Below, piece by piece: positions 23,132 through 58,697 of a stretch of DNA of 64,000 nt. Origin of the DNA: a virus (Duplodnaviria; Caudoviricetes); the IMG/VR virus record IMGVR_UViG_3300011435_000001, positions 1 through 64,000 of that record; one strand, 5' to 3'. The notes under the pieces were generated by a model. The model saw nothing but the letters and a program-made list of their open reading frames with translations. It was not told the origin of the DNA and made no database searches. Position 1 is the first letter of the stretch; every line of letters begins with the position of its first letter. A program made the translations under genes and the position numbers.

Positions 23132-23584
23132 CTATTGTTCGGAAAGAATGGCGGCGTCGTTGACCTGCTTGTTGATGCGGGCAAGGTCGTGGGGGCAGTC
23201 GCAGGTGGGCTGCTTGCGGCCTTCCCACGCGTCGCTGTGGGCAGTCGTGACGGCTTCGAGGGCTCGGTCGCCATCGTTGGGGGCGTCGTAGGAGGAGATG
23301 GAGTAGTCGCAGACCAGCTCGCCCGGGCTGTTGCCGAGCACGAGGAAAAGCCAGCGTTTCTTGGTCTCGCCGCCCTTGCTGTAGGCCACGTAAAGGCGGG
23401 ACTCGTCGCAGGCGATGAGGTTGGAGATGAACGCGGAGCGCTTTCCGTCGTATTTGAACCCCTCCTCGCCGTTGTGGCCGGAGAGCAGCGCGAAGCCCGC
23501 CTTTTCGAGTGTGCGGAGGAGCGACGCGACTTCAGGGCGCCAGTTGTTGATTCGGCGGACAGTGAGCGATTCAGTATTTATCAT
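23132..23584 (-). CDS. Hypothetical early phage protein
   Basis: 'WLFLVLGNSPGELVCDYS' motif; promoter-proximal ATG. Confidence 0.65.
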   Translation of the reverse strand: MINTESLTVRRINNWRPEVASLLRTLEKAGFALLSGHNGEEGFKYDGKRSAFISNLIACDESRLYVAYSKGGETKKRWLFLVLGNSPGELVCDYSISSYDAPNDGDRALEAVTTAHSDAWEGRKQPTCDCPHDLARINKQVNDAAILSEQ

Positions 23585-23589
23585 GACGC

Positions 23590-23618
23590 AAGATGCCACG
23601 GAAGACTGCGTTCGTCAA
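23590..23618 (-). promoter_or_regulatory. sigma70-type promoter, leaderless
   Basis: TTGACG-17-CATCTT-5 nt-ATG. Confidence 0.65.
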
Positions 23619-23621
23619 CCC

Positions 23622-23960
23622 CTATCGTGGGATAGGGGATTTACAGTCGCACACGTCCCCCGCCCCGGTCGCGTGGCCGGGATAATAGTTGTTGCAACGT
23701 GGGCAGGTCACCTCATGGATAACCGAAGCCGCGTAGGCGTAGGTGACTCCGTTTTCCAGACACCACAGCTCCCGGAAAAACTTTGCGGCTTGCAGCCGGT
23801 GAGCTTGCCTGTCTTCCGAGGGCTGATTGAGGTCGAGCCCGAGCTGCCAGTGCTTGTGATATTCACTGAACACAAGACGGCTCTCCGGCGTCGTCGCTCC
23901 ACGCTTCGCGAGCTGAAACTGGTGGGCGGACATGGCGTGCTGAATCTCGGCGTCGCTCAT
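23622..23960 (-). CDS. Hypothetical protein with C-terminal Zn-ribbon
   Basis: MSDAEIQH...CPRC...CDC. Confidence 0.55.
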   Translation of the reverse strand: MSDAEIQHAMSAHQFQLAKRGATTPESRLVFSEYHKHWQLGLDLNQPSEDRQAHRLQAAKFFRELWCLENGVTYAYAASVIHEVTCPRCNNYYPGHATGAGDVCDCKSPIPR

Positions 23961-24064
23961 TTGAGTTTGGACAGAGCCCAGACCCAAGCGACGATGATAA
24001 CCACCGGCATCGCGAACACGATGGCGAGGGACCCGAGCACGAGAAGCAAGTCGAGGATGTTCAT
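23957..24064 (-). CDS. 35-aa single-pass membrane peptide
   Basis: MNILDLLLVLGSLAIVFAMPVVIIVAWVWALSKLK; ATGA overlaps at both ends. Confidence 0.55.
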   Translation of the reverse strand: MNILDLLLVLGSLAIVFAMPVVIIVAWVWALSKLK

Positions 24065-24156
24065 CGCATTAGTCGGCTGATGGTGTAGCCGATGAAGACG
24101 AGCACGCACACGACGTAGACCGCGAGCGTGACGAGTGTGTCAAACAGGTTGTTCAT
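24061..24156 (-). CDS. 31-aa single-pass membrane peptide
   Basis: MNNLFDTLVTLAVYVVCVLVFIGYTISRLMR. Confidence 0.5.
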   Translation of the reverse strand: MNNLFDTLVTLAVYVVCVLVFIGYTISRLMR

Positions 24157-24161
24157 ACGTT

Positions 24162-24332
24162 TTATTTCTCCGCAGTCAAGCAGCGGTTGCACAGAATCCT
24201 CACACCGTCCGGAGCCAGCGTGGCAGCGTCTCCGACGGAGTCCCAGTTGAAAATCAGCCGTCGGCAACAGTCGCAGCTCTCGACGATTCCCGACCTGTCG
24301 AAGGACAGGACCGTTTTGTTGAATTCGTTCAT
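24162..24332 (-). CDS. 56-aa Cys-rich (Zn-finger-like) protein
   Basis: MNEFNK...CDCC...CNRC. Confidence 0.5.
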   Translation of the reverse strand: MNEFNKTVLSFDRSGIVESCDCCRRLIFNWDSVGDAATLAPDGVRILCNRCLTAEK

Positions 24333-24333
24333 A

Positions 24334-24414
24334 TCACTTTCTCCACATTGACCACGACCAAGCCGCGAGCGGCAGGAACATCAGCACGACCAACAACATT
24401 GCGATTAGTATCAT
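24334..24414 (-). CDS. 26-aa hydrophobic peptide
   Basis: MILIAMLLVVLMFLPLAAWSWSMWRK; starts 7 nt after the tRNA-like RNA 3' end. Confidence 0.4.
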   Translation of the reverse strand: MILIAMLLVVLMFLPLAAWSWSMWRK

Positions 24415-24421
24415 AAAAAAT

Positions 24422-24543
24422 TGGTGGGGCCCCTCTGGATTTTCACCATCGTCTAGCCCCGAAGGGCACCCGAGTTACAATCCTCAGGCCGTCTCATCGC
24501 ACTCAGTGTGTGCAATCGCGAGTGTTTCGCAGACCGGAACCCC
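24422..24543 (-). ncRNA. 122-nt tRNA-like RNA (Tyr-like) with expanded D region and long variable arm
   Basis: GGGGTTCC/GGGGCCCC acceptor + A-CCA; CCTGAG/CTCGGG stem with loop GATTGTAA; GCCC-TTCG-GGGC variable arm; TGG-TGAAAAT-CCA T-like arm. Confidence 0.7.
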
Positions 24544-24551
24544 GTAAAAAT

Positions 24552-24624
24552 TGGTGGGTCGGGGAGGGCTTTAACCTCCGTTTCACCGTTAAAACCGGTG
24601 CGTCTTGAATGAAACGACCGACCC
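24552..24624 (-). tRNA. tRNA-Lys(UUU), non-canonical
   Basis: 73-nt cloverleaf: GGGTCGG/CCGACCC, GTTT/AGAC, CACCG-GTTTTAA-CGGTG, GGAGG-TTAAAGC-CCTCC, A-CCA. Confidence 0.85.
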
Positions 24625-24632
24625 ATATCGTT

Positions 24633-24706
24633 TGAAGGGGGCAGCCCACCCCCGAGGTTACCGCCTCTATGCCCGGAGGTCCCGCTCCGGATGGCTGCGC
24701 CCTTCA
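24633..24706 (-). ncRNA. Candidate three-way-junction small RNA
   Basis: Closing stem TGAAGGG-C-GCAGCC / GGCTGC-C-CCCTTCA enclosing hairpins CCGGAG/CTCCGG and GAGG/CCTC. Confidence 0.5.
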
Positions 24707-24718
24707 CCCGACACCAGT

Positions 24719-24746
24719 AAAGTATCACAACCCGGCATCTTGTCAA
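24719..24746 (-). promoter_or_regulatory. sigma70-type promoter for the RNA cluster
   Basis: TTGACA-16-TACTTT just upstream of the three structured RNAs. Confidence 0.7.
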
Positions 24747-24937
24747 ATGCCTCCGCGTCTTTTTCTGCGACGGGTCCCACGAGGGCGAGGAAGGTAAGCA
24801 GGGTGCCCACCGCTCTACGAAGCCGCTCCCGCGCGCATTGCGCCGCGATGGTCATGGGGTATTGAGTTTTCAAAAAGAAAGGGCAGGGTTCCTTCCCTGC
24901 CCCGTTTGGCGAGCATGTCCCGGACTCTCTTCCCAAA

Positions 24938-25351
24938 TCAGTCGTTGTGATGGATGGACCCGTTTTGGTGTCCCGCGCCTCCACCATTCGCAACTCCGCC
25001 ATTGCCGCCAGCTCCACCGTTGCCTCCCGTGCCCGAGACAGTCGTGGTCGTGTTGACGCTCGTCTTGGCCGGGCGCAGGAGAGCCGCGCCGCCGACGATG
25101 CCACCAGCCGTGGCCACTGCCGGAACGAATCCGGGTCCGCCGGTCTGGTTGAGGACGGCTTCAATCGTGCCGGGCTTCTTCGGGTCGAACGCGACGATGG
25201 TCGTCTGGCTCGGAGCGAAAAGGCTCGCGGTGCGAATGCGGACGATTTTCAGTCCGTTCACTTCGCCGATGATTTTGGTGCCCGCTTGCGCGGGAGTGAT
25301 AACCGCCAACAACAGTGTCAGCGCCAGTAGGGTTTTGATGTTGTATTTCAT
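24938..25351 (-). CDS. Exported / membrane Gly-rich protein
   Basis: Signal-peptide-like MKYNIKTLLALTLLLAVITPAQA; Gly/Asn-rich C-terminus; upstream TTGACG-18-TAACCT promoter (25362-25391). Confidence 0.6.
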   Translation of the reverse strand: MKYNIKTLLALTLLLAVITPAQAGTKIIGEVNGLKIVRIRTASLFAPSQTTIVAFDPKKPGTIEAVLNQTGGPGFVPAVATAGGIVGGAALLRPAKTSVNTTTTVSGTGGNGGAGGNGGVANGGGAGHQNGSIHHND

Positions 25352-25392
25352 CAGTGTTCGTAGGTTAGCACGAGGCACGTCGCCCCGTCAAA

Positions 25393-26376
25393 TCAGAGGG
25401 TGCCTTTCCATTCTTTGCGCGCCTTGTGCGCGTCCGCCTCCACCATCATTTTGACGAGCGCGGAAAAAGTGGTTGAGGCGTGCCAGCCCAATTTATCCCG
25501 CGTCTGCGTGTGGTCCCCGAGCAGCAGGTCCACTTCCGTTGGCCTTAACAGCCGTGGGTCGAAGACCACATATTCCTGCCAAGGCTTGGGCAGGTTCGCA
25601 TACTCGAAGGCGGTGTCGAGAAAATCCCGAACGCTCCAAGTCTGGCCGGTCGCGACGACGTAATCGCCGGGCTTCTCTTGTTGCAGCATCAGGTGCATGG
25701 CCTTGACGTAGTCGCCCGCAAAGCCCCAGTCGCGCTGAGCATCCAAGTTGCCGAGCGTCAGGTTGTCTTGCAGACCGTATAAGATGCGACCGATGGCGCG
25801 CGTGATTTTGCGGGTGACGAAGGTCTCACCCCGCCGGGGACTCTCGTGGTTGAAAAGGATTCCGTTGCTCGCGTGCATCCCGTGCGCCTCGCGGTAGTTC
25901 ACCGTCGCGAAGTGCGCCATCACCTTCGCGCAGCCGTAGGGGGAGCGCGGATAAAAGGGCGTGGTCACCTTCTGCGGGTTCTCGTGGACCTTGCCGAACA
26001 TTTCGCTCGAGCCCGCTTGGTAGTATCGCGCCTCGGGGCAGCAGGTCTTCACGGCCTCGAGCATTCGCAACGCACCTAGTCCCGTCACGTCTCCCGTGTA
26101 GATTGGCTGGTCAAACGAAACTCTGACGTGCGACTGTGCCGCCAGATTGTAAACCTCGGTCGGCTTCACCTTGAGCAGTATCGCGCAAATCGACGCGAGG
26201 TCCGTCAGGTCGCTGTAGTGCAGATGAAGCCGACTAAAAATGTGGTCAATCCGGCCCGTGTTGAAAGAGGAGGAACGGCGTATGGTGCCGTGGACTTCGT
26301 AGCCCAGCTCGAGCAGGTGCTCGGCGAGGTAGGAACCGTCCTGTCCGGTGATGCCGGTGATGAGTGCGGTTTTCAT
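25393..26376 (-). CDS. gmd: GDP-mannose 4,6-dehydratase
   Basis: '[21 protein letters not shown]', '[10 protein letters not shown]', 'PRSPYGCAK', '[17 protein letters not shown]', '[11 protein letters not shown]'. Confidence 0.97.
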
Positions 26377-26385
26377 TTTCCTTGG

Positions 26386-27468
26386 TTAGTGTCCTCCCGT
26401 GATGATGGTCTTGGTCACGCGCAGTTCTTTGTCCGACGGCAGGAACTTCTTGTAGAAGCCCCGGTCGAAAAACATGTTGAACTCCGGACGAATCCGCGTG
26501 ATGGCTCCCGTGACACTCGACATTTTGAACTCGAGGATGACGCCGCCGATTTCGCAGCGCAGGTGTTGCTTGCGCGTGAACATGTCTTGGTCCTTGAAGC
26601 CCGGCATCCCGACGATATGCACGTTGCGGTCGAAGCTGTAGCCGCTGACGTGGTAGTGGCCCTGCACGAGAATCGCGGGCTTCTCTCCGCCCTGAAAACT
26701 CTCAACCATCTTCTGGCCCTTGTAGCTTCGGGCGTAGGAGCTGCCCCCTCCCGGGTGCTGAATCTTCATGATGGCCTTGTGCTCGCCGCAGGTCAGCTCA
26801 ACGTCGCCCTCGACGTGGCCAATGTAGACCATGTCATTGCGGCCCGCGCGCTCGCAGACCATCTGCAAGTAAGCGCCGAAGTTGAATCCCTCTTTTTGCC
26901 ACCATCCTTCGTGGTCGTCGCCCGTGATGAAGTGCGTGGTGATTCCGTCCCTTTGCGGGTAGTTGCGCGCGCAGTAAAGGGCCTGCCCGTCGATTGAGGT
27001 CTCATAGACGCTGGCTCCGTTAATGCGGGGCACGTAGCCGTCGACGATGTTGCCCGCGTGAAATACGTCCTTGATGCCCTCGCGCAGGAAAAGGTCATAC
27101 TGCGCGTTGAGAGCGTCCAGCCGTTCCTCGCGGCAGCACAGATGCGTGTCTGATACCAGCCCGATTTTAGTCCAAGCGTCGCCGTCGAAAACGTCGAGCG
27201 GGATGGTTCCGAACTCCGTGGGCACCGTCTTGGCTTTTTCGATGAGAGGGCAACCGGCGGGCTTCTCTGTTGATGTGGGGGCGGGCACAGCCAGTGGCTT
27301 AGTGACGATGGCGCTCTCCCGCCTCTTCACACTGTCCGGCACGAACCGCTGGCGAGCCCGGCGAACGGCAGGCTCGCTCACGCCCCAGATGTGGGCTAGT
27401 TCTGCGTCGGTGTGTCCCGAGTCAACGTCGGCACAAAAGTTCGTGATGTCTTGCGGTGTCCACTTCAT
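26386..27468 (-). CDS. Calcineurin-like metallophosphoesterase with N-terminal HTH
   Basis: 'VSDTH', 'AGNIVDG', 'GDDHE', 'GHYH'; N-terminal 'DAELAHIWGVSEPAVRRAR'. Confidence 0.85.
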   Translation of the reverse strand: MKWTPQDITNFCADVDSGHTDAELAHIWGVSEPAVRRARQRFVPDSVKRRESAIVTKPLAVPAPTSTEKPAGCPLIEKAKTVPTEFGTIPLDVFDGDAWTKIGLVSDTHLCCREERLDALNAQYDLFLREGIKDVFHAGNIVDGYVPRINGASVYETSIDGQALYCARNYPQRDGITTHFITGDDHEGWWQKEGFNFGAYLQMVCERAGRNDMVYIGHVEGDVELTCGEHKAIMKIQHPGGGSSYARSYKGQKMVESFQGGEKPAILVQGHYHVSGYSFDRNVHIVGMPGFKDQDMFTRKQHLRCEIGGVILEFKMSSVTGAITRIRPEFNMFFDRGFYKKFLPSDKELRVTKTIITGGH

Positions 27469-28052
27469 ATTGCTGTCTTGGGTTTTCGTTTGGGTTTTTC
27501 TTCCACTACTAAAATTATTTGTTCCTGCGGCGCCTTGTCGAAGGCGAGGTCGAAGGCGAGCATGGCCTCGGTGGGCGTGTTGCCCATTCCGATGATGGCG
27601 TAGCCGGGCTTCGTGATGTCTCCGTAGTAACAGATGAAACGCGCGCCGTCGTTCGCGACGGTCGGTCGGAGCTGGACCGAGGGCTTGCTCAGGACCCGCT
27701 GGCCCTCCGTCTGCGCCTTCAGAAGCTCCACCTGCGCTGTCTGCACGGCATGAATCGAATCGTAGAGCCGGTCGTGCGTGGAGGTGTCCCAGCGCGTCTT
27801 GTCTTCTAGGAGTTCGTCGATGCGGTTGCACACGTTGGTAAACGTGACTGCCGCCGCTGCCGCTGCACCACCGTCAATTTTCCTCGGCGTGTCCTCCTCG
27901 GAGAGCTGGAAGATGGAGCGATGACCGAGGATGAAGGGGCTCAGGTTCTGGATGATGCTGTGCAGCGTCTCTAGCTGCGTGCGCGTCACCGACTCCCGCG
28001 TGGGGATAGTCGCGGGAGTCACTTTGTTCTGGCTGTTATGGTCACGGCCCAT
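27465..28052 (-). CDS. Hypothetical protein
   Basis: 195-aa ORF coupled to its neighbours. Confidence 0.55.
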   Translation of the reverse strand: MGRDHNSQNKVTPATIPTRESVTRTQLETLHSIIQNLSPFILGHRSIFQLSEEDTPRKIDGGAAAAAAVTFTNVCNRIDELLEDKTRWDTSTHDRLYDSIHAVQTAQVELLKAQTEGQRVLSKPSVQLRPTVANDGARFICYYGDITKPGYAIIGMGNTPTEAMLAFDLAFDKAPQEQIILVVEEKPKRKPKTAI

Positions 28053-28543
28053 TGTAGTAAATGTAAGGCATCTGCACAGTTATCGTCAACTAAAGGAACG
28101 GTCGGGAAAAGCTTGGCGGCAGCCCGCATCATGAAATCTTTGTCTGCCGCGCCGCTGCCCGTGGCGAACTTCTTCAGCGTGGTGACCGGGCAGCAGTCCG
28201 TCTGAATGTGGTTGGCGGCGGCGAAGAGCCACACGACTGCGCGCAGGCTGGACCAGAGTTGCGTTTGCAGAGTGTATTTGGAGAACTGGACGTCCTCGAA
28301 CACCATGAACTCGATGGCTTTTTCCGGCTCGTGGTGACCGAGGTTGTTTGCCCAAACCCCGGCTAGCTTTCGCTGAAGCGCAGGAATGCGAGGGTCGAGC
28401 CGACGGTCCAGACGCTGCTTCGCGGCCTTCTTACGCAGTTCCTCGCTGATGAGCGTCCACGTGCCTGCGGTAACCTTCCCGTCACGGGCACGGTAGGCCC
28501 AGCCACATTGCGAGCCAAGGTCGAGGGCGAGAAGGGTTTTCAC
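28019..28543 (-). CDS. RuvC-like Holliday junction resolvase
   Basis: 'LLALDLG', 'FEDV', 'LKKFATGSGAADK', 'DNCADAL'; GTG start. Confidence 0.8.
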   Translation of the reverse strand: MKTLLALDLGSQCGWAYRARDGKVTAGTWTLISEELRKKAAKQRLDRRLDPRIPALQRKLAGVWANNLGHHEPEKAIEFMVFEDVQFSKYTLQTQLWSSLRAVVWLFAAANHIQTDCCPVTTLKKFATGSGAADKDFMMRAAAKLFPTVPLVDDNCADALHLLQWAVTITARTK

Positions 28544-28935
28544 TTGAGAGACCCCGGCGGGACTTCCACCCACTTCCCGTCAGCGTCTAGGACCTCGACC
28601 TTCAAGAGCTCATCCTTGGTTTCGTTGATGACGGTTTGCTCTAGCGTCTCTTCCATCTCGATTTCATATTTTTTGAGCGCCAGCCAAAACCTCATTTTTG
28701 GCGTGGCCAGCAGTCGTTTGAATGCCGACGCCTTGTTGTCTGCTTGCGAACGGGAGTCGGAGGCCCGGCCCATCGCCCCGGACTCACGGTGAATAATCAG
28801 AACGCCTGAGGCCACCTTGTTCTTGGCCTGCCCGCCTTTGCCGCTGCCACAAAAGTAGGACACATCGAAATCTTTTCGCGTAGCGAGAGTGATTTTCTGG
28901 CGGGTGTCTTCTTTGGGCTGGTTGATGATTTTCAT
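28540..28935 (-). CDS. Release-factor (RF-1 domain) GGQ peptidyl-tRNA hydrolase-like protein
   Basis: 'FCGSGKGGQAKNKVASGVLIIHRESG...DSRSQADNK' matches the GGQ domain of ArfB/PrfH-like proteins; 131 aa. Confidence 0.85.
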   Translation of the reverse strand: MKIINQPKEDTRQKITLATRKDFDVSYFCGSGKGGQAKNKVASGVLIIHRESGAMGRASDSRSQADNKASAFKRLLATPKMRFWLALKKYEIEMEETLEQTVINETKDELLKVEVLDADGKWVEVPPGSLK

Positions 28936-29639
28936 TTGGCGGCGTTCTTCTTGAAGCTCGCGCGCAGCTTCGCGATGATTTGGACGTGCGCTGCGTGGAC
29001 TGCCTGACGCGAGACGCCCCGGGCCCGCGCAATGTCGGCCATGCTGATTTTGTCGTTGTAGATTTTCCGGAGCAGCACCTTCTCTGCCGTGGTCAACTCG
29101 CAGCGGCACTTCTTGAGAGCCTCGAGGTTCAGGCCCAGCTCTTCCTTCTCCATCACGACTTCATCGGTGGAGGGCGCGGAGTCCACGGCGGGCGTGAACT
29201 TCTGCGGCGCGCGGGTGCTTTCGCCATCGTGCGTCGTGACCGTTTCCTCCGCGTATTGCGTGTAGGTCGGAAAAACATCCGCGTGCGAGGAGGGCTCGAC
29301 GGTGTTCTTCGATTTCCACAGGCCCGCGAGCGCCCCCTTCAAAAAGGGCATCAGGTAGCGGGTGAAACGGTTGCCGCGCTCCGGGTCAAACCTGTCTATC
29401 GCATTCATCAGCGCAGAATTCGCGGCTGAAATCACTTCGTCGTCCGGAAGACGCCCACGATTTTGACGCCGGGCGAATCGGGCAGCGAATAGCAAATGGT
29501 TTCGAATGAGAAACTCCCGAGACTCAGCGTTGCCCTTTTTCGCTTTGGTGAAGAGTTCTTTTTCTTCTTCCGGCGTGGTGAGTTTGAATCGCAGGTCTTC
29601 ATTTGCCCGGTAGTAGTTGCTGTTGGTCCCGTCGCTCAT
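28932..29639 (-). CDS. sigma70-family RNA polymerase sigma factor
   Basis: 'LTTPEEEKELF', 'FLIRNHLLFAARFARR', 'LMNAIDRFDPERGNRFTRY', C-terminal HTH 'SMADIARARGVSRQAV'. Confidence 0.85.
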   Translation of the reverse strand: MSDGTNSNYYRANEDLRFKLTTPEEEKELFTKAKKGNAESREFLIRNHLLFAARFARRQNRGRLPDDEVISAANSALMNAIDRFDPERGNRFTRYLMPFLKGALAGLWKSKNTVEPSSHADVFPTYTQYAEETVTTHDGESTRAPQKFTPAVDSAPSTDEVVMEKEELGLNLEALKKCRCELTTAEKVLLRKIYNDKISMADIARARGVSRQAVHAAHVQIIAKLRASFKKNAAK

Positions 29640-35658: not shown

Positions 35659-36849
35659 TTAACTCGTGGCGTGTTTGCCAGAGTCTTTGTCTGTTGCCAT
35701 TCGCAACACTGAAAAGGATTGTCCCATAGCCGCCGCACCTTCGTCAACTAATGCGGCGCGAAAATCTTCGACGGCCTTGGTCTTCTTGCCGCGCGGTGAC
35801 GTCAGCTCAATCAGCTCGTCGAGCGAGGTGATGGCGACGTCGTAGAGGGAGTCGACTTTGTCGGCGTGCTCCGGCGCGATGAAGCGCTTGGCGATTTCGC
35901 CGGTCTTCCGCGCGTGCAGAATTTTGATGTTGCGCTTCGGATAGAGCACGTAGCCCTCGGGAATAAAATCTTCGTCGTTCGCCGCTTTCGTGGTGGCGTT
36001 CTTGCGGAAAGACTCAGCCCAGAGTTTCACCACCTGCGCCAGCTTCATCCCTTCGGCCACCTGCTTCGGGTCTTCGAGGGACACCGTGTTTATGTCTTCG
36101 GGCACCGCGAGCGGCGCATATTTCTTGCCCACTTGAATCACCAGCTCCGCGACTTTCGGACAAACACCAACCAGCGAACAGAAAAGACAAGTGCCAACCG
36201 TGGCCCGCGCCAGAGAGAAATCCGCAGGATTCTTGCCTGCCTCGACGGCCCGAGCAACCACGGTCCGCACTCTAAGGTAAAACGAGTCGGGAACCGAGAC
36301 GTCAAAAAGGTGGTCAGATTCATGGTCAATGTGGGGTTGGAAAAACAGCACGCGACAGGTCCGCAGCTTCGGGAACATTTTCTTGATGCCAAGCATATAG
36401 GAAATCCCCTGCAAGTTGTCCTTGGCGTCGGTCACTGCATTTCTTCCGAACTTCCAGTCGATGATTTCCGCGTGGGTCTCTTCGGCGTTGATGATGCCGA
36501 GGTCGAGGTAGCCGCCGGTGGTGCCCTCCCAAAGTCCTCCTTCGCGTTCTTGGATTACGGCATCGTCCACGGGCAGATAAATCTCGCGCAGCACCTTGGC
36601 TCCCGGGCCAAAGGAGGCAATTCTCTCAAGCGCCAGCTCCTTGCACTGAGCCACCACAAGGGCCTTGTAGTCGGGGATTCGGTTGTCGTCGAGGTCAGAC
36701 TCCACTGCGTTGTGCTGAAGCGTGCCCATGATGGAAGCCTCATTTTCCGACTGCGTGGGCTGATACTTCGGGCAGGCCTCGCGTGCTTGAAGAGTAGACG
36801 GAGAGTAGGGGTGATGCTTGCGTTCTGTCTTGTCTGCTTGTTCGGTCAT
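35659..36849 (-). CDS. Cas4-like PD-(D/E)XK exonuclease (DUF2800-like)
   Basis: 'YSPSTL...ACP', 'GTLQH', 'GYLDL...IIDWKFG', 'QGISY', 'CLFC...CP'. Confidence 0.8.
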   Translation of the reverse strand: MTEQADKTERKHHPYSPSTLQAREACPKYQPTQSENEASIMGTLQHNAVESDLDDNRIPDYKALVVAQCKELALERIASFGPGAKVLREIYLPVDDAVIQEREGGLWEGTTGGYLDLGIINAEETHAEIIDWKFGRNAVTDAKDNLQGISYMLGIKKMFPKLRTCRVLFFQPHIDHESDHLFDVSVPDSFYLRVRTVVARAVEAGKNPADFSLARATVGTCLFCSLVGVCPKVAELVIQVGKKYAPLAVPEDINTVSLEDPKQVAEGMKLAQVVKLWAESFRKNATTKAANDEDFIPEGYVLYPKRNIKILHARKTGEIAKRFIAPEHADKVDSLYDVAITSLDELIELTSPRGKKTKAVEDFRAALVDEGAAAMGQSFSVLRMATDKDSGKHATS

Positions 36850-37484: not shown

Positions 37485-38420
37485 TCATTGCACAGACTCT
37501 ACTTCAGTGGTTGCCGGTTGTCCAATCATCGCGGACTGAGCGAGGGTGCCCTTGTAGAATTCGGGGAAGCCGCCGCACACTCCGCGCTTGATTTGCTTGA
37601 TGAAGTGCTCGTAGAGGTGGTCGCGGATGAAGTCGCCCTCTTCGCGCTCGAGGTCCTTTTGCAGCTCGCACATGAGGGGGCCGATGTCCTCGGGCCCACC
37701 GACCAACGTGCCGTTGTCTCGCAGGTGCTGGACCGCCTTGCGCCAGCGCGCCTCTGTCTTAAGTTGCGTGACGAGATTCTGCACCACGTCATTCGTGCCG
37801 GGGTTCGCCTTCTTCCACTCGCCGCCGTGACGCTCCTTGAACTCGGGGCTCACGAACTTGCCGATGAGAATCTTTTTGTCGATTCCGAATCGGTTGTAGT
37901 TCTTGATGACGAACCCCTCCACCTTGCAGCCGCCGAGGATGGAGTCGTGGTCCAAGAAGTCCCGGATTTGGTCATCAGAGATTCCCGGCAACGCGCCGAC
38001 GTAAAAAGTGGGGACAACCTCGAGGCCGAGTCTCTCAGCCTCCGCACACTTGTCGTCATATTGGAGATACGTCTCCGGCCCGGTCATCACGTCGAAAAGG
38101 ATGATGTGTTGCTTCGGGATGCGCGCGTAGGCTTGCACGTTGTGCTTCGGCTTGCTCAGATACTCTCCGCGATACACCCAGCCGGGGCGCAAGTCGAGAG
38201 AGGCGGCGGTGTCGACAGCGTGGTTGAAAAGCTGCGGCACTGCACCGATGTGAATGTCTTGTCCCTTGGAGCGGACTGAGAGCGAGCCGTCGTGGTTGCG
38301 GCACATGCTGAACTGTGACCCGTCAACTTTCTCTTCGACGACGACGGGGCCGCACAGCAGCTCGTTTAGGTAGCGGTGTCCGAGCGTGTAGATGCTCGGG
38401 TAGGATGATAAGTTGCTCAT
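37485..38420 (-). CDS. ATP-dependent RNA ligase (Rnl2-like)
   Basis: Motif I 'EEKVDGSQ', 'YRGEY', 'LFDV', 'EGFVIK', 'GKFVSPEFKE'. Confidence 0.85.
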   Translation of the reverse strand: MSNLSSYPSIYTLGHRYLNELLCGPVVVEEKVDGSQFSMCRNHDGSLSVRSKGQDIHIGAVPQLFNHAVDTAASLDLRPGWVYRGEYLSKPKHNVQAYARIPKQHIILFDVMTGPETYLQYDDKCAEAERLGLEVVPTFYVGALPGISDDQIRDFLDHDSILGGCKVEGFVIKNYNRFGIDKKILIGKFVSPEFKERHGGEWKKANPGTNDVVQNLVTQLKTEARWRKAVQHLRDNGTLVGGPEDIGPLMCELQKDLEREEGDFIRDHLYEHFIKQIKRGVCGGFPEFYKGTLAQSAMIGQPATTEVESVQ

Positions 38421-38540
38421 TGCACGCTGGGGGTTGGTCAGTATTTCTTGCGGGGGTTGTGTTTGATGGCGGCCAGAAGTTGCTTATGGTCTTCGGCGTT
38501 TGCTTTGGTGGTGGCGGCCTTGCGCGGGCTCTTCTTCACT

Positions 38541-38828
38541 TTACGAGTTGAGTATGATGGCATTGGTTTGTGTGGGGTTGTGGGTGGGCACGAGCCAGCC
38601 CGTCTTGAGTCGGTCCACGGCAGCTCCGGCCTGCCAGCCTTCGCGCCACACCTTGCGGATTTTACCCGCGCGGGAGTGGAACTCGGGGCAGTCCTTCAAC
38701 TGTTCGCCTCGGCCTTGGGCGTCGAAGCCCATCTCCCAGTGCGCGAAGAGTTGTTGCTGGCCTTTTGTCAGGGCCAGCTCGGGGTTGTCGGAAACGCAGA
38801 TGCGTAGGTTTTCGGAGCTTATTTTCAT
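38541..38828 (-). CDS. Hypothetical protein
   Basis: 95-aa ORF in the operon. Confidence 0.5.
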   Translation of the reverse strand: MKISSENLRICVSDNPELALTKGQQQLFAHWEMGFDAQGRGEQLKDCPEFHSRAGKIRKVWREGWQAGAAVDRLKTGWLVPTHNPTQTNAIILNS

Positions 38829-47498: not shown

Positions 47499-48428
47499 TC
47501 ACAGTGATGGTGGTCTTTCGTTGGTGAGTTTCTCAAGCGCAGCAGTGAGGCGCGCGCGTTCCTTCTCAATCTCCTGAATGAGTTTCTCCCCCTTGTCCCG
47601 AACGCTGACCACCGCGACTGCAACGGCGTTGTTGTATTCGTTCAAGCGTGCTGCGAACGGAGAGCCACTACGGCATTGAGGCACACGGGCCGAGGCGGCG
47701 CTACAAAAGTATTTGTGAGTAGTCTCAATCCTCTCCACCAAGCTGCCCGGTGTGGACCTATTGAATTGCTCGAGGTCCTTCTGCGCCTCACGCACACCCT
47801 CCACCCACGAGCGTAGACGCCAGTCATCCTTCTCCCTCGCGTGCTTCTCGAAGGCGTCCAAGTCCAGCTCGGGCTTGTTTAGGTCACGGTGCTGCCACAA
47901 TTGAGCGCGGTGTTGCTCTATGAAGTCGTGCAGCTCAGCTCCCCAAGCGTCATCATTCTCGAGGCGCTCGAGTGGTGTTTGCTGCGCCATCTCTGCTGCG
48001 CTGAGGTATTCCTCGACTGAACCGTGCGAGAATGGAATGGACAGGAAAAACTTTTTGAGCAGCACCAGCTTCCAGAAGTCACACTCCAAGGCGCACTCTT
48101 CCTTGGTCGTGAATGAGGTGGACACAGGAAAACGTGATGCCGTGTTGGGCCCGGAGTCTTCGTTGACGCAGTGCTGTAGCCCACGCTTGGCCAGTTGCTC
48201 CTTCACCTCCGACGGTATCGTGTAGCCCCAGCAGTCCGCCTTGAACACACTGACTGGGCGGCCCTGCCGCATTGGCTCCTTGAAGGCATTGGAGCTTACA
48301 GAAAAGCGGAAGTGGAAGGGCGTCGCCTTGCTCGGATGAGAGTAGATATGTCGGTAACTTTGCACGCACTGAACATATGCGACGTAATGACCTCGCGTCA
48401 ACTTAGAGAGTTCTTTTTGTTGGTGCAA
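47499..48428 (-). CDS. Hypothetical protein (first gene of the - strand block)
   Basis: 309-aa ORF; start uncertain. Confidence 0.5.
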   Translation of the reverse strand: MHQQKELSKLTRGHYVAYVQCVQSYRHIYSHPSKATPFHFRFSVSSNAFKEPMRQGRPVSVFKADCWGYTIPSEVKEQLAKRGLQHCVNEDSGPNTASRFPVSTSFTTKEECALECDFWKLVLLKKFFLSIPFSHGSVEEYLSAAEMAQQTPLERLENDDAWGAELHDFIEQHRAQLWQHRDLNKPELDLDAFEKHAREKDDWRLRSWVEGVREAQKDLEQFNRSTPGSLVERIETTHKYFCSAASARVPQCRSGSPFAARLNEYNNAVAVAVVSVRDKGEKLIQEIEKERARLTAALEKLTNERPPSL

Positions 48429-53821: not shown

Positions 53822-53844
53822 CAGGTGTAGTAGCTCTTTGAAAT

Positions 53845-53917
53845 TGCGGGGAGAATGGGATTCAAGTCAGTCTCATAAGCTGACCTCTGGTGGTTCGACT
53901 CCACCCCGCCGCAACCA
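53845..53917 (+). tRNA. tRNA with CAU anticodon (elongator Met or Ile2), atypical
   Basis: TCAGT-CTCATAA-GCTGA; GGTGG-TTCGACT-CCACC; A-CCA; acceptor with bulged G; shortened D arm. Confidence 0.8.
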
Positions 53918-53920
53918 ATT

Positions 53921-54224
53921 TGTCGGCGGAACCAGCAGCCTTTTCGGCAGCAATGGACTGCCGACAGAACAGTAGTCGAGACGGGGAGCGCGAAGTCGCG
54001 GACATCCCGCGCCCGAAAGGACGCATGGCCCCGAACCACCTCGGCAATCGCAGACGGCTCCTGCGTAATGAGAGCCGTGCAATTTTGACGCAACTCCAGC
54101 CAAAAGAGCCGACGCATCGCAACGCGAAGACCGGCAAGCGGGGAAGGTTAAGGAAGCGTTGACGGAAGATGGCTCAGCCGAGGGCTCGCGAAACCTGCGA
54201 TAGTGCGTCTCAAAAACCCCGCTT
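53921..54224 (+). ncRNA. Candidate ~300-nt structured non-coding RNA
   Basis: Several nested stems read by eye (see findings); no credible ORF. Confidence 0.55.
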
Positions 54225-54236
54225 ACTTTTGCACGC

Positions 54237-54863
54237 TTGATGTCAAGGGACCACGAGAGTCTCCAAAACTTTCCAGCCGGGCGCGATACCCGGAGCGTGT
54301 GCCAATTTATGGAAAACGAGTTTTGCAAAACTCTGGTCCCAACGGAGTGCATCTCCTATCCGCGCTCCGGTCACCACGCTCTGGTGGACCTGCTGCGTGT
54401 TTACTTCGAGGACTCCTTCGTCTACGGCGAAATCTACCGCGACCCCGCGGCCACGCTGGGCAATCTTCTCCCTCCGGTCAACTACCAGAAGAACCACGAC
54501 TTCGGCCTGCTCACTCCCGTTCTGCCCGAGCGGCAGTATCTCGTGCAGGTCCGCAACCCGCTCGAGTCCATCGAGAGCTGGGAAGTTTTCGACCGGCGTG
54601 TCGGGCACATCCCCGAGACGCACGAGGCCCGCTTGGACTTCTGGACAGCGTTTGTCAAGAAGTGGGTGTTCGCAGACATCCCGAACCGTCTTGTGGTCTG
54701 TTACGAGGACCTCGTTGGAGCCCCGCTGGAAACCTGCACGGCAGTTATCCAGTTCTTGACGAAGACGCAGAACGTCGACACAACCCATCTGTCGCGCTGC
54801 CTAGAACGCAGCCCGCTCAAGCGCCGCCGCCCGCACGTCCCGCGCCTCTACTTAAAGGCTTGA
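54237..54863 (+). CDS. Sulfotransferase-domain protein
   Basis: 5'-PSB 'ISYPRSGHH', 3'-PB 'QVRNPLESIES', 'VVCYEDLV'. Confidence 0.75.
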   Translation: MMSRDHESLQNFPAGRDTRSVCQFMENEFCKTLVPTECISYPRSGHHALVDLLRVYFEDSFVYGEIYRDPAATLGNLLPPVNYQKNHDFGLLTPVLPERQYLVQVRNPLESIESWEVFDRRVGHIPETHEARLDFWTAFVKKWVFADIPNRLVVCYEDLVGAPLETCTAVIQFLTKTQNVDTTHLSRCLERSPLKRRRPHVPRLYLKA

Positions 54864-56805: not shown

Positions 56806-58697
56806 TTCCCGAGTCGACAAAGGCTCTCATCGAGAAGCTTTCGGTCCTCCTGCATAAGGAGCAGCCCATCGAGGCCGCTCGTCTGCTACTCAAGGACGCG
56901 GGCCGCGAGGACAAGGTCGAAACCAAGACGGAGGCCTACGCGGTGCTCACCCCCCTGCTGCACTACTGCCTCAACAACGGCGGGCACGCAGAGGCGGCGC
57001 AACTGTGCTGGGGCTCGACGCTTTTCACCCCGAAGCCCGAGTCCACGCAGCGAGTCTGGCGCGCGTTCGACACGGACAGCTTCATCCTGCTCATGGGCGC
57101 GGCGTCCATGTCGAAGTCCTACTCAATGGGCGTTCGCCTGATGCTCGAGTGGATTCGCGACCCGGAGTTCACCACCGTCCAAGTCCTCGGCCCATCAGAG
57201 AACCATCTTGAAGACAACCTTTTCTCCCACCTCGTCGAACTCCACCGCAGCTCCACCATCCCGCTGCCCGGGGTGGTCGGGAAACTTTTTATCGGCCTTG
57301 ACTCCCGAAAGCGCCGCGGCGCAATTCGGGGAGTTGTGGTTCCACTGGGAAAAAAAGCCGCAGGACGGGTCCAAGGAACAAAGCGGTTCAACCGAAAGAA
57401 ACCCCACCCCATTTTCGGTGCTCTTAGCCGGATGTTCGTCTTCCTTGATGAAATGGTGAACATCCCGAAAGGGATTTGGAAAGACATCGACAACTTGCTG
57501 GCGAACGCGCAGGGCGACGACGGTCTGAAAATCATCGGGGCCTTCAACCCGACGGACCCGCAGGACGAAGTCGGCAAGCGCTGCGAGCCGAGCGGCGGAT
57601 GGGCCGGATTCGACGCAGACCGAGACTTCGATTGGAAGTCCGTCCGCGGTTGGCGCGTAGTCCGACTCGACGCAAAGTTTTCCGAGAACGTCCAGACGGG
57701 CAAGATGATTTACTCTGGCCTCCAGACCAAGGAGGGCTTCGACTTCATCATCGCCAACGCGGGCGGCACGGACTCGCCCGGCTACTGGACGATGGCGCGC
57801 GGCTGTTTCCCTCCCACGGGTGTCTGCATGGCTGTCATCCCCGGCGGGATGCTCAACAAGTTCAAGGGTGAGTTCATCTGGCTCGAGACGCCGAACGAGT
57901 GCGCGGGCTTCGACCCGGCGCTTCAGGGCAAAGACGCGGCGTATTTCGCCAAGGGAAAATTCGGAGTCGCCTCCGGCATCAAGCTTCCGCCCACGGTGGA
58001 CGCGCCGAACGGGGTGACAATCTTTTTCAAGAATCGCGTAGGCCACAACGCCCCCCGTTGGGCGCTCCAACTCGAGGCTCTGTTCAAGATGCCGAAGCCG
58101 CAGGGGGACTCACCAAGCCAAGAGATGGCGGAGGCGGTCGTCAAGATTTGCCGACAGCTTTACGTCAAGCCCGGGTGGCTGTGCATGGACCGCACGGGCA
58201 ACGGGCAGGGAGTCTACGACATCGTCAAATACATTTGGTCCACCGAAGTCCAAGGCGTGAACTACTCCGAGGGCGCCACTGACCGAAAAATCATGGCGGA
58301 GGACACGAAGACGCCAGACGAACTCTACGACCGGGTGCAGACGGAGCTGTGGTTTCTGATGCGGAAGTTAATCGAGTTCGACTACGCGAAGGTGCTGCCC
58401 TCCGCGGACACCTCCGACCTCATCTCGCAGCTCGGCACCCGCTGGTTCCGCGCCACAGGAAAAATTTCCAAGGTTGAGTCGAAGGACGACTACAAGCTCC
58501 GCAACCAAGCGAACTCCCCGGACGAAGCGGACGCCGTGTCTCTGCTTTTCTACGGCGCGCGCAACGCGGCGCAGGTCACGTTCGGCATGACCCCGGAGAA
58601 CACTTCCGCCGAAGGCTTCGACGACGACTACAATTCCCCCGACTATCGCGTCGACGTCACTAACCAATTTGAGTCGTTACCCGACGACAACTTTTGA
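56802..58697 (+). CDS. terL: Terminase large subunit
   Basis: Walker A-like 'MGAASMSKS', Walker B 'VFLDE', 'GAFNP', RNase H-like 'FDPA...DAAYF', 'MDRTGNG', 'SPDEADA'; GTG start overlapping upstream TGA. Confidence 0.85.
   Translation: MIPESTKALIEKLSVLLHKEQPIEAARLLLKDAGREDKVETKTEAYAVLTPLLHYCLNNGGHAEAAQLCWGSTLFTPKPESTQRVWRAFDTDSFILLMGAASMSKSYSMGVRLMLEWIRDPEFTTVQVLGPSENHLEDNLFSHLVELHRSSTIPLPGVVGKLFIGLDSRKRRGAIRGVVVPLGKKAAGRVQGTKRFNRKKPHPIFGALSRMFVFLDEMVNIPKGIWKDIDNLLANAQGDDGLKIIGAFNPTDPQDEVGKRCEPSGGWAGFDADRDFDWKSVRGWRVVRLDAKFSENVQTGKMIYSGLQTKEGFDFIIANAGGTDSPGYWTMARGCFPPTGVCMAVIPGGMLNKFKGEFIWLETPNECAGFDPALQGKDAAYFAKGKFGVASGIKLPPTVDAPNGVTIFFKNRVGHNAPRWALQLEALFKMPKPQGDSPSQEMAEAVVKICRQLYVKPGWLCMDRTGNGQGVYDIVKYIWSTEVQGVNYSEGATDRKIMAEDTKTPDELYDRVQTELWFLMRKLIEFDYAKVLPSADTSDLISQLGTRWFRATGKISKVESKDDYKLRNQANSPDEADAVSLLFYGARNAAQVTFGMTPENTSAEGFDDDYNSPDYRVDVTNQFESLPDDNF

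Follow-up and report, generated by a model that had tools for sequence, protein, structure and literature searches.

The window analysed here is a stretch of 64,000 nucleotides that opens a complete IMG/VR virus record of 72,647 bp, one bounded by direct terminal repeats, and belongs to a phage genome with a G+C content of approximately 59%. All genes near the element under study, a CCA-ending RNA of 122 nt, are carried on the minus strand, and the features on which our analysis draws are listed below from the upstream side.

37485-38420, minus strand: gene for an RNA ligase domain protein (Pfam match)
28932-29639, minus strand: gene for a sigma-70-like protein (Pfam match)
28540-29109, minus strand: gene for an RF-1/GGQ domain protein (Pfam match)
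26386-27831, minus strand: gene for a conserved 481-aa neighbour, metallophosphoesterase-like (weak Pfam match)
25393-26376, minus strand: GDP-mannose 4,6-dehydratase (Gmd) gene
24938-25351, minus strand: gene for a secreted Gly-rich protein
24880-24903, minus strand: terminator-like hairpin and T-run that closes the Gly-rich protein gene, upstream of the RNA cassette
24667-24855, minus strand: 62-aa ORF (MTIAAQCAR...), the marker of the syntenic slot, kept in two relatives (67% identity in G001, 64% in G003)
24719-24746, minus strand: promoter-like site, read by eye within the 3' end of the 62-aa ORF (TTGACA, a 16-nt spacer ending in TGa, and TACTTT; an extended -10)
24552-24624, minus strand: tRNA-Lys(UUU) with encoded CCA and an altered elbow (T-loop UUAAAGC, D-loop without GG), RF00005 score 42.7 bits
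24544-24551, minus strand: 8-nt spacer AUUUUUAC, from the CCA of tRNA-Lys to the 5' G of the 122-nt RNA
24422-24543, minus strand: the 122-nt CCA-ending tRNA-like RNA, whole element (sequence and RNAfold)
24415-24421, minus strand: AUUUUUU trailer of the 122-nt RNA, of the same kind as those after tRNA-Lys and after the inspected tRNAs of relatives
24334-24414, minus strand: first downstream ORF, a 26-aa hydrophobic peptide, whose ATG lies 8 nt past the CCA and has no Shine-Dalgarno sequence

The two RNAs exactly fill a 253-nt stretch between two ORFs that itself contains no plausible ORF, and they share the ending ...CCC-ACCA-AUUUUU. The same signature recurs in related phages, in which CCA-(A)UUU follows all 8 tRNA-model matches whose flanks were examined. 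The tRNA-Lys gene was missed both by ARAGORN and by the whole-window Rfam gathering scan, and is seen only when a short stretch is scanned permissively, which implies that tRNA counts obtained for this phage clade with standard pipelines are too low. Given that the terminator-like hairpin ends the Gly-rich protein gene, the RNA cassette needs a promoter of its own. The promoter-like arrangement at 24719-24746 is kept in a relative (locus L002, TTGACA-16-TAAAAT), while a stricter consensus promoter scan made no call at this site. No terminator is found between the 122-nt RNA and the downstream 26-aa ORF. That ORF is the first of a series of very small hydrophobic ORFs (26, 56, 31 and 35 aa) that directly follows the cassette in the window (24414-23957, minus strand). 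On the upstream side, the RF-1/GGQ, sigma-70-like, RNA ligase and metallophosphoesterase-like proteins could, from their domain matches, form a set for tRNA repair or ribosome rescue. The Gmd protein is 65% identical to proteins from PVC, cyanobacterial and other lineages, and is uninformative as to the host.

A preliminary description of the 122-nt RNA had set out its letters and helices, and the letters quoted match the minus strand from 24543 to 24422. RNAfold reproduces the overall fold described, with a minimum free energy of -50.5 kcal/mol and z = -2.8; 0 of 200 dinucleotide shuffles reach this folding energy, and a prediction for the entire 340-nt precursor region retains the same fold. 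The predicted parts of the fold, with their pair probabilities, are as follows.

24536-24543, minus strand: acceptor 5' strand GGGGUUCC, paired with GGGGCCCC at 24426-24433 (0.96-1.0)
24422-24433, minus strand: acceptor 3' strand GGGGCCCC, discriminator A and encoded CCA
24491-24534, minus strand: D-like stem, GUCU (24531-24534) with AGAC (24491-24494), around both extra hairpins (0.42)
24518-24530, minus strand: extra hairpin 1, GCGA-AACAC-UCGC (approximately 0.8)
24496-24516, minus strand: extra hairpin 2, AUUGCAC-ACACUGA-GUGCGAU (0.9-1.0)
24468-24489, minus strand: anticodon-like arm, 7-bp stem GCCUGAG/CUCGGGU with the 8-nt loop GAUUGUAA at 24475-24482 (0.93-0.99)
24456-24467, minus strand: variable-arm-like hairpin GCCC-UUCG-GGGC with a cUUCGg tetraloop (0.99)
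24434-24450, minus strand: T-like arm UGG-UGAAAAU-CCA, 3 bp (0.5-0.6)

The 8-bp acceptor followed by A-CCA (which includes two U.G pairs), the two extra hairpins in the D region and the UUCG-capped variable arm are thus recovered as they had been described. The anticodon-like arm carries the 8-nt loop originally noted, on a stem of 7 bp rather than the 6 bp claimed, and the 3-bp T-like arm is present in the fold at moderate probability. The enclosure of the two hairpins by GUCU and AGAC belongs to the favoured fold, yet its probability is moderate and it competes with a second AGAC located 40 nt downstream (24451-24454, RNA positions 90-93, probability 0.22), the two pairings being nearly isoenergetic (-50.5 versus -50.1 kcal/mol). 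Five helices are both robust and free of mismatches (the acceptor, hairpins 1 and 2, the anticodon-like stem and the cUUCGg hairpin). Furthermore, tandem G.A/A.G pairs can be proposed, with which the T-like arm (GAUGG/CCAGA) would reach directly up to the acceptor, in an 8/5 arrangement as in bacterial tRNA-Sec. Acceptor-like 7-bp closures before NCCA number around 190 in the window and are common by chance in this GC-rich genome, so that the case for the 122-nt RNA rests on the combination of features and not on the acceptor alone. Complementarity between the RNA and the phage genome is at chance level (11 nt or less). The combination of an acceptor closure, a CCA end, multiple hairpins and a position within a tRNA operon supports the interpretation of this element as an RNA gene.

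Searches with models of known RNAs were performed at two levels of stringency, a gathering scan of the whole window with Rfam and a permissive cmscan of positions 23500-26000 at E<=10 with its 4227 families. The gathering scan returned no family for the 122-nt RNA, and in the permissive scan the tRNA model (RF00005, gathering score 29 bits), tRNA-Sec, tmRNA and the other models gave nothing at 24422-24543 at E<=10, while tRNA-Lys was detected in the same scan. ARAGORN made no call anywhere in the window, and none on the RNA with relaxed thresholds, in intron mode or in tmRNA mode, nor on six in-silico constructs from which hairpin 1, hairpin 2 and/or the extra arm had been deleted. The earlier suggestion that this is neither a plain tRNA nor a tRNA with an intron is consequently upheld, as both the Rfam scan at E<=10 and the intron mode of ARAGORN are negative for it.

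The fold can also be compared with tRNA features one by one. As in a tRNA, an acceptor helix is followed by a single-stranded NCCA at the 3' end. The anticodon-like loop departs from the standard 7 nt with U33 and a purine at 37: it has the 8 nt GAUUGUAA, in which either UGU or GUA needs an irregular register. The T-like loop UGAAAAU allows U54 and A58, yet positions 55 and 56 are G and A, such that the conserved U55 and C56 are missing. No G18/G19 partner is evident, two hairpins (loops AACAC and ACACUGA) replacing the D-loop, and the canonical elbow (U54-U55-C56-R57-A58 with G18-G19) is accordingly absent. Nor do we find the 12-bp acceptor/T branch of allo-tRNAs (8+4 or 9+3): 2 unpaired bases separate the 8 pairs of the acceptor from the 3 Watson-Crick pairs of the T-like arm, and counting the tandem G.A pairs makes this 8 + 5. 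The long variable arm and long stems of allo-tRNAs do have counterparts (8-bp acceptor, 7-bp anticodon-like stem, 12-nt extra hairpin). A D arm like that of tRNA-Sec and serine identity are both lacking, as the 122-nt RNA has a 4-bp stem around two hairpins and an A discriminator, a G discriminator being typical of Ser and Sec tRNAs (PMC7609411). With a core that lies outside cloverleaf models, the RNA is probably not an ordinary elongator or decoder tRNA, to judge from its sequence.

We found no homologue of the 122-nt RNA. Fourteen related phages were gathered through the 481-aa metallophosphoesterase-like protein and their whole sequences compared; nhmmer and blastn-short gave no homologue, either in the loci of these first 14 relatives or in 15 whole genomes. 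A single-sequence covariance model of the RNA (R1) likewise found none in the relatives' loci, whole records and tRNA neighbourhoods, the last of these scanned with filters off (best score 14.5 bits, E = 2.3), none in the loci of further relatives reached via the Gly-rich protein in a collection of 15 billion proteins, and none in 453 bacterial genomes sampled from three phyla via Acidobacteriota, Verrucomicrobiota and Planctomycetota MAGs. The lone R1 match from the genome search (24 bits) lies within an ORF and has many broken pairs, and was discarded as noise. Exact-pattern scans were also without a homologue, both in IMG/VR (T arm with ACCA; three loops with ACCA; the 20-mer of the anticodon arm) and in JGI metagenomes (the same 20-mer), as was blastn against GenBank phages at E<=10. 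The 28 matches to a pattern made for the variant tRNA-Lys beside it are all chance occurrences in AT-rich coding DNA. A protein-guided metagenome scan with the Gly-rich neighbour and a viral scan with the downstream 112-aa protein yielded nothing. The exact neighbouring protein is encoded on just one more contig (Logan SRR6448217), whose 351 aligned nt show no difference, so that it carries no information on micro-diversity. To judge by these comparisons, the RNA is an orphan among everything searched. The preliminary description had proposed a new class of tRNA mimic, naming a lack of covarying homologues as the outcome that would count against it, and that lack is what we find in all data searched: no covarying homologue came to light in any genome set or database. 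The claim of a new class is consequently unsupported so far.

The distribution of the locus among related phages nevertheless places the element in a wider pattern. In the closest relative sampled (L004/G003, 88% identity in the neighbouring protein), the small ORF runs straight to the next protein gene, indicating that the 122-nt RNA is dispensable for this type of phage, and the syntenic slot is empty in G003, G004 and five further relatives. The slot of G001 (L002:13976-14379, equivalent to G001 47787-48190) lies behind the same promoter and holds three other irregular CCA-ended RNAs, as follows.

G001 slot, RNA 1: 188 nt, tRNA-like, with a canonical T arm
G001 slot, RNA 2: approximately 104 nt, with a 6-bp acceptor
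G001 slot, RNA 3: 99 nt, a tRNA whose anticodon/variable region carries 36 inserted nt (RF00005, 43 bits)

Yet another structured RNA occupies the slot of G002. Oversized tRNA-like RNAs of 91-188 nt with a CCA-AUUU end are present in G001, G007, G009, G011 and G012, and those found beyond the slot include RNAs of 142 nt (G009), 110 nt (G001) and 91 nt (G012), together with several irregular RNAs of 74-81 nt.

Most similar in kind to the 122-nt RNA are two RNAs of 118 and 119 nt, each the last unit of its tRNA polycistron, in G007 and G011 (L017:1665-1782, L024:1756-1874), with weaker matches to the same family in G001 and G003 (L044:13631-13730, minus strand, and L052:19295-19406). The family has no match in Rfam, and shows four compensatory pairs, from two members only. 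In common with the 122-nt RNA, it comes from the same clade and from a tRNA polycistron; a single base separates its 8-bp acceptor from a short second stem, two small hairpins on the 5' side precede a long one in the middle and a short T-like one, and the NACCA end runs into AUUUU. It differs in that all four of its hairpins lie inside the second stem. Moreover, the covariance model of the 118-nt family (R2) scores nothing on the 122-nt RNA, and R1 scores nothing on the family, so that on present sequences the two appear analogous and not demonstrably homologous.

A further structured locus lies elsewhere in the window (53843-54305, plus strand), in which a promoter-like site (TTGACA...GATATGT) precedes a weak tRNA(CAU) (23 bits) and approximately 390 nt of structured non-coding RNA with a CCA-AUUU end. 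It has no Rfam match at the gathering threshold; G002 and G003 both keep its core (…AGUAGUCGAGACGGGG…CCGAAAGGACGCAUGGCCCCG…), and a similar RNA cluster in G001 also begins with a tRNA(CAU). Beside the tRNA(CAU) cluster of several relatives, there is a recurring 3' module, (G/C)GGCC(A/G)CGAUA(G/C)(G/U)GUCCA-CCA-AUUU, at the following sites.

G003 38370-38443 and 38530-38616: 3' module
G002 approximately 35940-36003: 3' module
G010 approximately 57200-57247: 3' module
G006 approximately 24700-24669, minus strand: 3' module

The closest published kind is found in the work of Mukai et al. (2017), who described allo-tRNAs with 8/4 and 9/3 branches and reported 'polycistrons of irregular tRNAs', from soil metagenomes, metatranscriptomes (forest and peat soil) and phages (PMC5389517; PMC7609411). 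Set beside each other by published description, these irregular tRNAs and the 122-nt RNA share an 8-bp acceptor, a longer anticodon stem, a long extra arm, extra structure between the acceptor and D stems (the 'E-loop' of Mukai et al.), possible five-stem junctions and a place in polycistrons with other odd tRNAs; theirs occur in both phages and bacteria. Unlike the 122-nt RNA, allo-tRNAs have a 12-bp acceptor/T branch and a long D stem with a tetraloop resembling that of tRNA-Sec, whereas our element has a T-like stem of 3 bp (5 with G.A pairs), a D region of two full hairpins (36 nt) and an 8-nt anticodon loop. In E. coli, several of the irregular tRNAs of Mukai et al. could not be charged or took no part in translation (PMC5389517). 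Another parallel is provided by RNAC and RNAD of phage T4, small stable RNAs of the phage tRNA region whose role is still unknown (PMC3014915). These too are structured RNAs other than tRNAs, of approximately 120-140 nt, co-transcribed and processed with phage tRNAs, as the 122-nt RNA may also be. They are however kept among T4-like phages, whereas the 122-nt RNA is an orphan, and there is no sequence relationship (blastn, E<=10).

Phage tRNAs are reportedly a counter-measure to PARIS. They also counter tRNA-cutting defences including PrrC and retron Eco7 (PMC10264068, PMC11555353). Bacterial tRNA-Tyr and the phage tRNA-Tyr that acts against retron Eco7 resemble the 122-nt RNA in A73, G1-C72, a long extra arm and a UGUAA loop; the 122-nt RNA differs in having the wrong register for GUA and non-canonical D and T arms, and in going unrecognised by tRNA models. 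In addition, rescue from retron Eco7 by phage tRNA-Tyr needed decoding ability (PMC11555353), which a mimic would be without.

Our best explanation of the locus, to which we give about an even chance of being correct, is that the 122-nt RNA is a real phage tRNA mimic, co-transcribed with and sitting beside tRNA-Lys and processed as a tRNA, as part of a cassette for counter-defence or translation takeover. Transcription would start from the promoter-like site at approximately 24746-24719 and run through tRNA-Lys(UUU), the 122-nt RNA and the small membrane-peptide genes in that order. In bacterial tRNA maturation, RNase P acts at the 5' end and RNase E or exonucleases on the 3' side. With a tRNA-type acceptor, A73-CCA and an A/U-rich trailer, the 122-nt RNA is most likely cut out by the tRNA-processing enzymes of the host, in which case RNase P would cut at the 5' G and the side after the CCA would fall to RNase E or exonucleases; and as there is no terminator after it and an ATG lies 8 nt past its CCA, an mRNA precursor would release the RNAs from its 5' part. 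The mimic would then accompany tRNA-Lys and might, for example, engage or divert a tRNA-binding or tRNA-cutting factor of the host. It may be one occupant of fast-turning-over slots behind conserved promoters, and thus akin to the other RNAs of the clade in kind and not by homology. In favour of this reading are the z-score of -2.8, the trailer and spacing shared with tRNA-Lys, the upstream terminator and the promoter kept in L002, and the phage offers a counter-defence context in its RNA ligase domain, its RF-1/GGQ domain and its metallophosphoesterase-like neighbour. Nothing links the 122-nt RNA directly to any defence system, and a decoy or counter-defence role is no more than a possibility suggested by its context. 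Further points against the same reading are the negative homologue searches, a closest sampled relative that does without the cassette, a promoter that the consensus scan passed over, and D-like and T-like helices predicted to be only moderately favoured.

A less probable alternative, which we doubt without finding it far-fetched, is that a tRNA gene was duplicated and the copy decayed or was rearranged, leaving an element without a job of its own, or at most a processing ('punctuation') signal that frees a nearly leaderless downstream mRNA. An orphan that relatives dispense with would fit such a history, as would the position of the downstream ATG 8 nt past the CCA, with neither a Shine-Dalgarno sequence nor an intervening terminator. 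AGACG is present twice in the RNA, and its 3' part (AGACG-A-UGGUGAAA...GAGG...CCCACCA) aligns with the D-3'/anticodon-3' part of tRNA-Lys. However, the alignment score is reached by 24 of 500 shuffles and is statistically unconvincing, such that origin by duplication and rearrangement of tRNA-Lys is only a hint from the sequence. Moreover, decay should leave mismatches, whereas five helices are perfect and one of them carries the stabilising cUUCGg, and 122 nt of useless sequence would be unusual in so tightly packed a genome.

It is unlikely, in our estimation, that the RNA is a functional decoder tRNA, aminoacylated and enlarged in its D region, whether for tyrosine (GUA), for threonine (UGU with an extra loop base) or as a four-base or frameshift reader. 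Elements of the tRNA-Tyr type can be read in it, namely A73, G1-C72, a long extra arm and UGUAA in the loop, and the CCA is encoded. Tyrosine identity, as put forward in the preliminary description, is weak all the same: with GUA as the anticodon, three bases precede U33 on the 5' side and position 38 is vacant, and the linkers of the extra arm are irregular, as the arm abuts the anticodon stem without a 5' linker and has 5-7 unpaired bases on its 3' side, unlike bacterial tRNA-Tyr. Alignment of GAUUGUAA with the tRNA-Lys anticodon loop (GUUUUAA), which it resembles with one base inserted, instead gives UGU with one extra base 5' of U33, and on the letters of the loop the UGU reading seems at least as natural as GUA. 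Acceptor/T arrangements of 8/5 and 8/4 are functional in tRNA-Sec and allo-tRNAs (PMC5389517, PMC7609411), and with the tandem G.A pairs the T arm would have 5 'bp' and abut the 8-bp acceptor. Against a decoder stand the rejection of the RNA by all tRNA models and detectors, even with the insertions deleted, a T-loop without U55/C56 and with no evident G18/G19 partner, and its absence from all relatives examined. The idea of a quadruplet or frameshift reader fares no better: tblastn of the ORFs of G001-G003 against the phage genome gave only adjacent-gene or shadow-ORF artefacts and no convincing +1-shifted gene, and codon usage for Lys, Tyr, Thr and Ile equals that of G003, which is without the cassette. 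These two screens do not count decisively against decoding, yet nothing in them favours it.

A more ambitious version of the mimic reading appears to us more doubtful still. Under this proposal, the 122-nt RNA would be a functional and possibly aminoacylated six-helix tRNA mimic, which an expanded D region and an altered elbow would render blind to, or a trap for, a host tRNA-cutting defence. This clade of approximately 72-kb phages would keep fast-evolving cassettes of oversized 91-188-nt mimics behind conserved early promoters as an arms-race toolkit, which could be the so far unrecognised source of the soil 'polycistrons of irregular tRNAs'. Finally, we consider it very unlikely that there is no RNA gene here and that the structure arose by chance in a GC-rich intergenic spacer, since, for all that acceptor-like closures before NCCA are frequent by chance in the window and the searches above gave no homologue, none of the 200 shuffles folds as well (z = -2.8), and the exact register with tRNA-Lys, the common ACCA-AUUUUU trailer and the clade-wide habit of such RNAs also stand against it.

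On balance, the 122-nt RNA should be regarded as a further irregular tRNA look-alike in a phage group that carries many, and not yet as a proven new class. As a kind of element, oversized CCA-ended tRNA-like RNAs are real in this phage clade, and they resemble the polycistrons of Mukai et al. (PMC5389517). This clade-wide pattern is of greater interest than the single RNA, whose value lies mainly in pointing to it. Irregular tRNAs from soil were reported before without an explanation, and it is by now established that phage tRNAs can overcome tRNA-cutting defences. If the RNAs of the clade are stable and active, they would provide concrete, cloneable candidates for decoys or unusual decoders, and the unit of adaptation would be an exchangeable slot for tRNA mimics rather than any one conserved gene.
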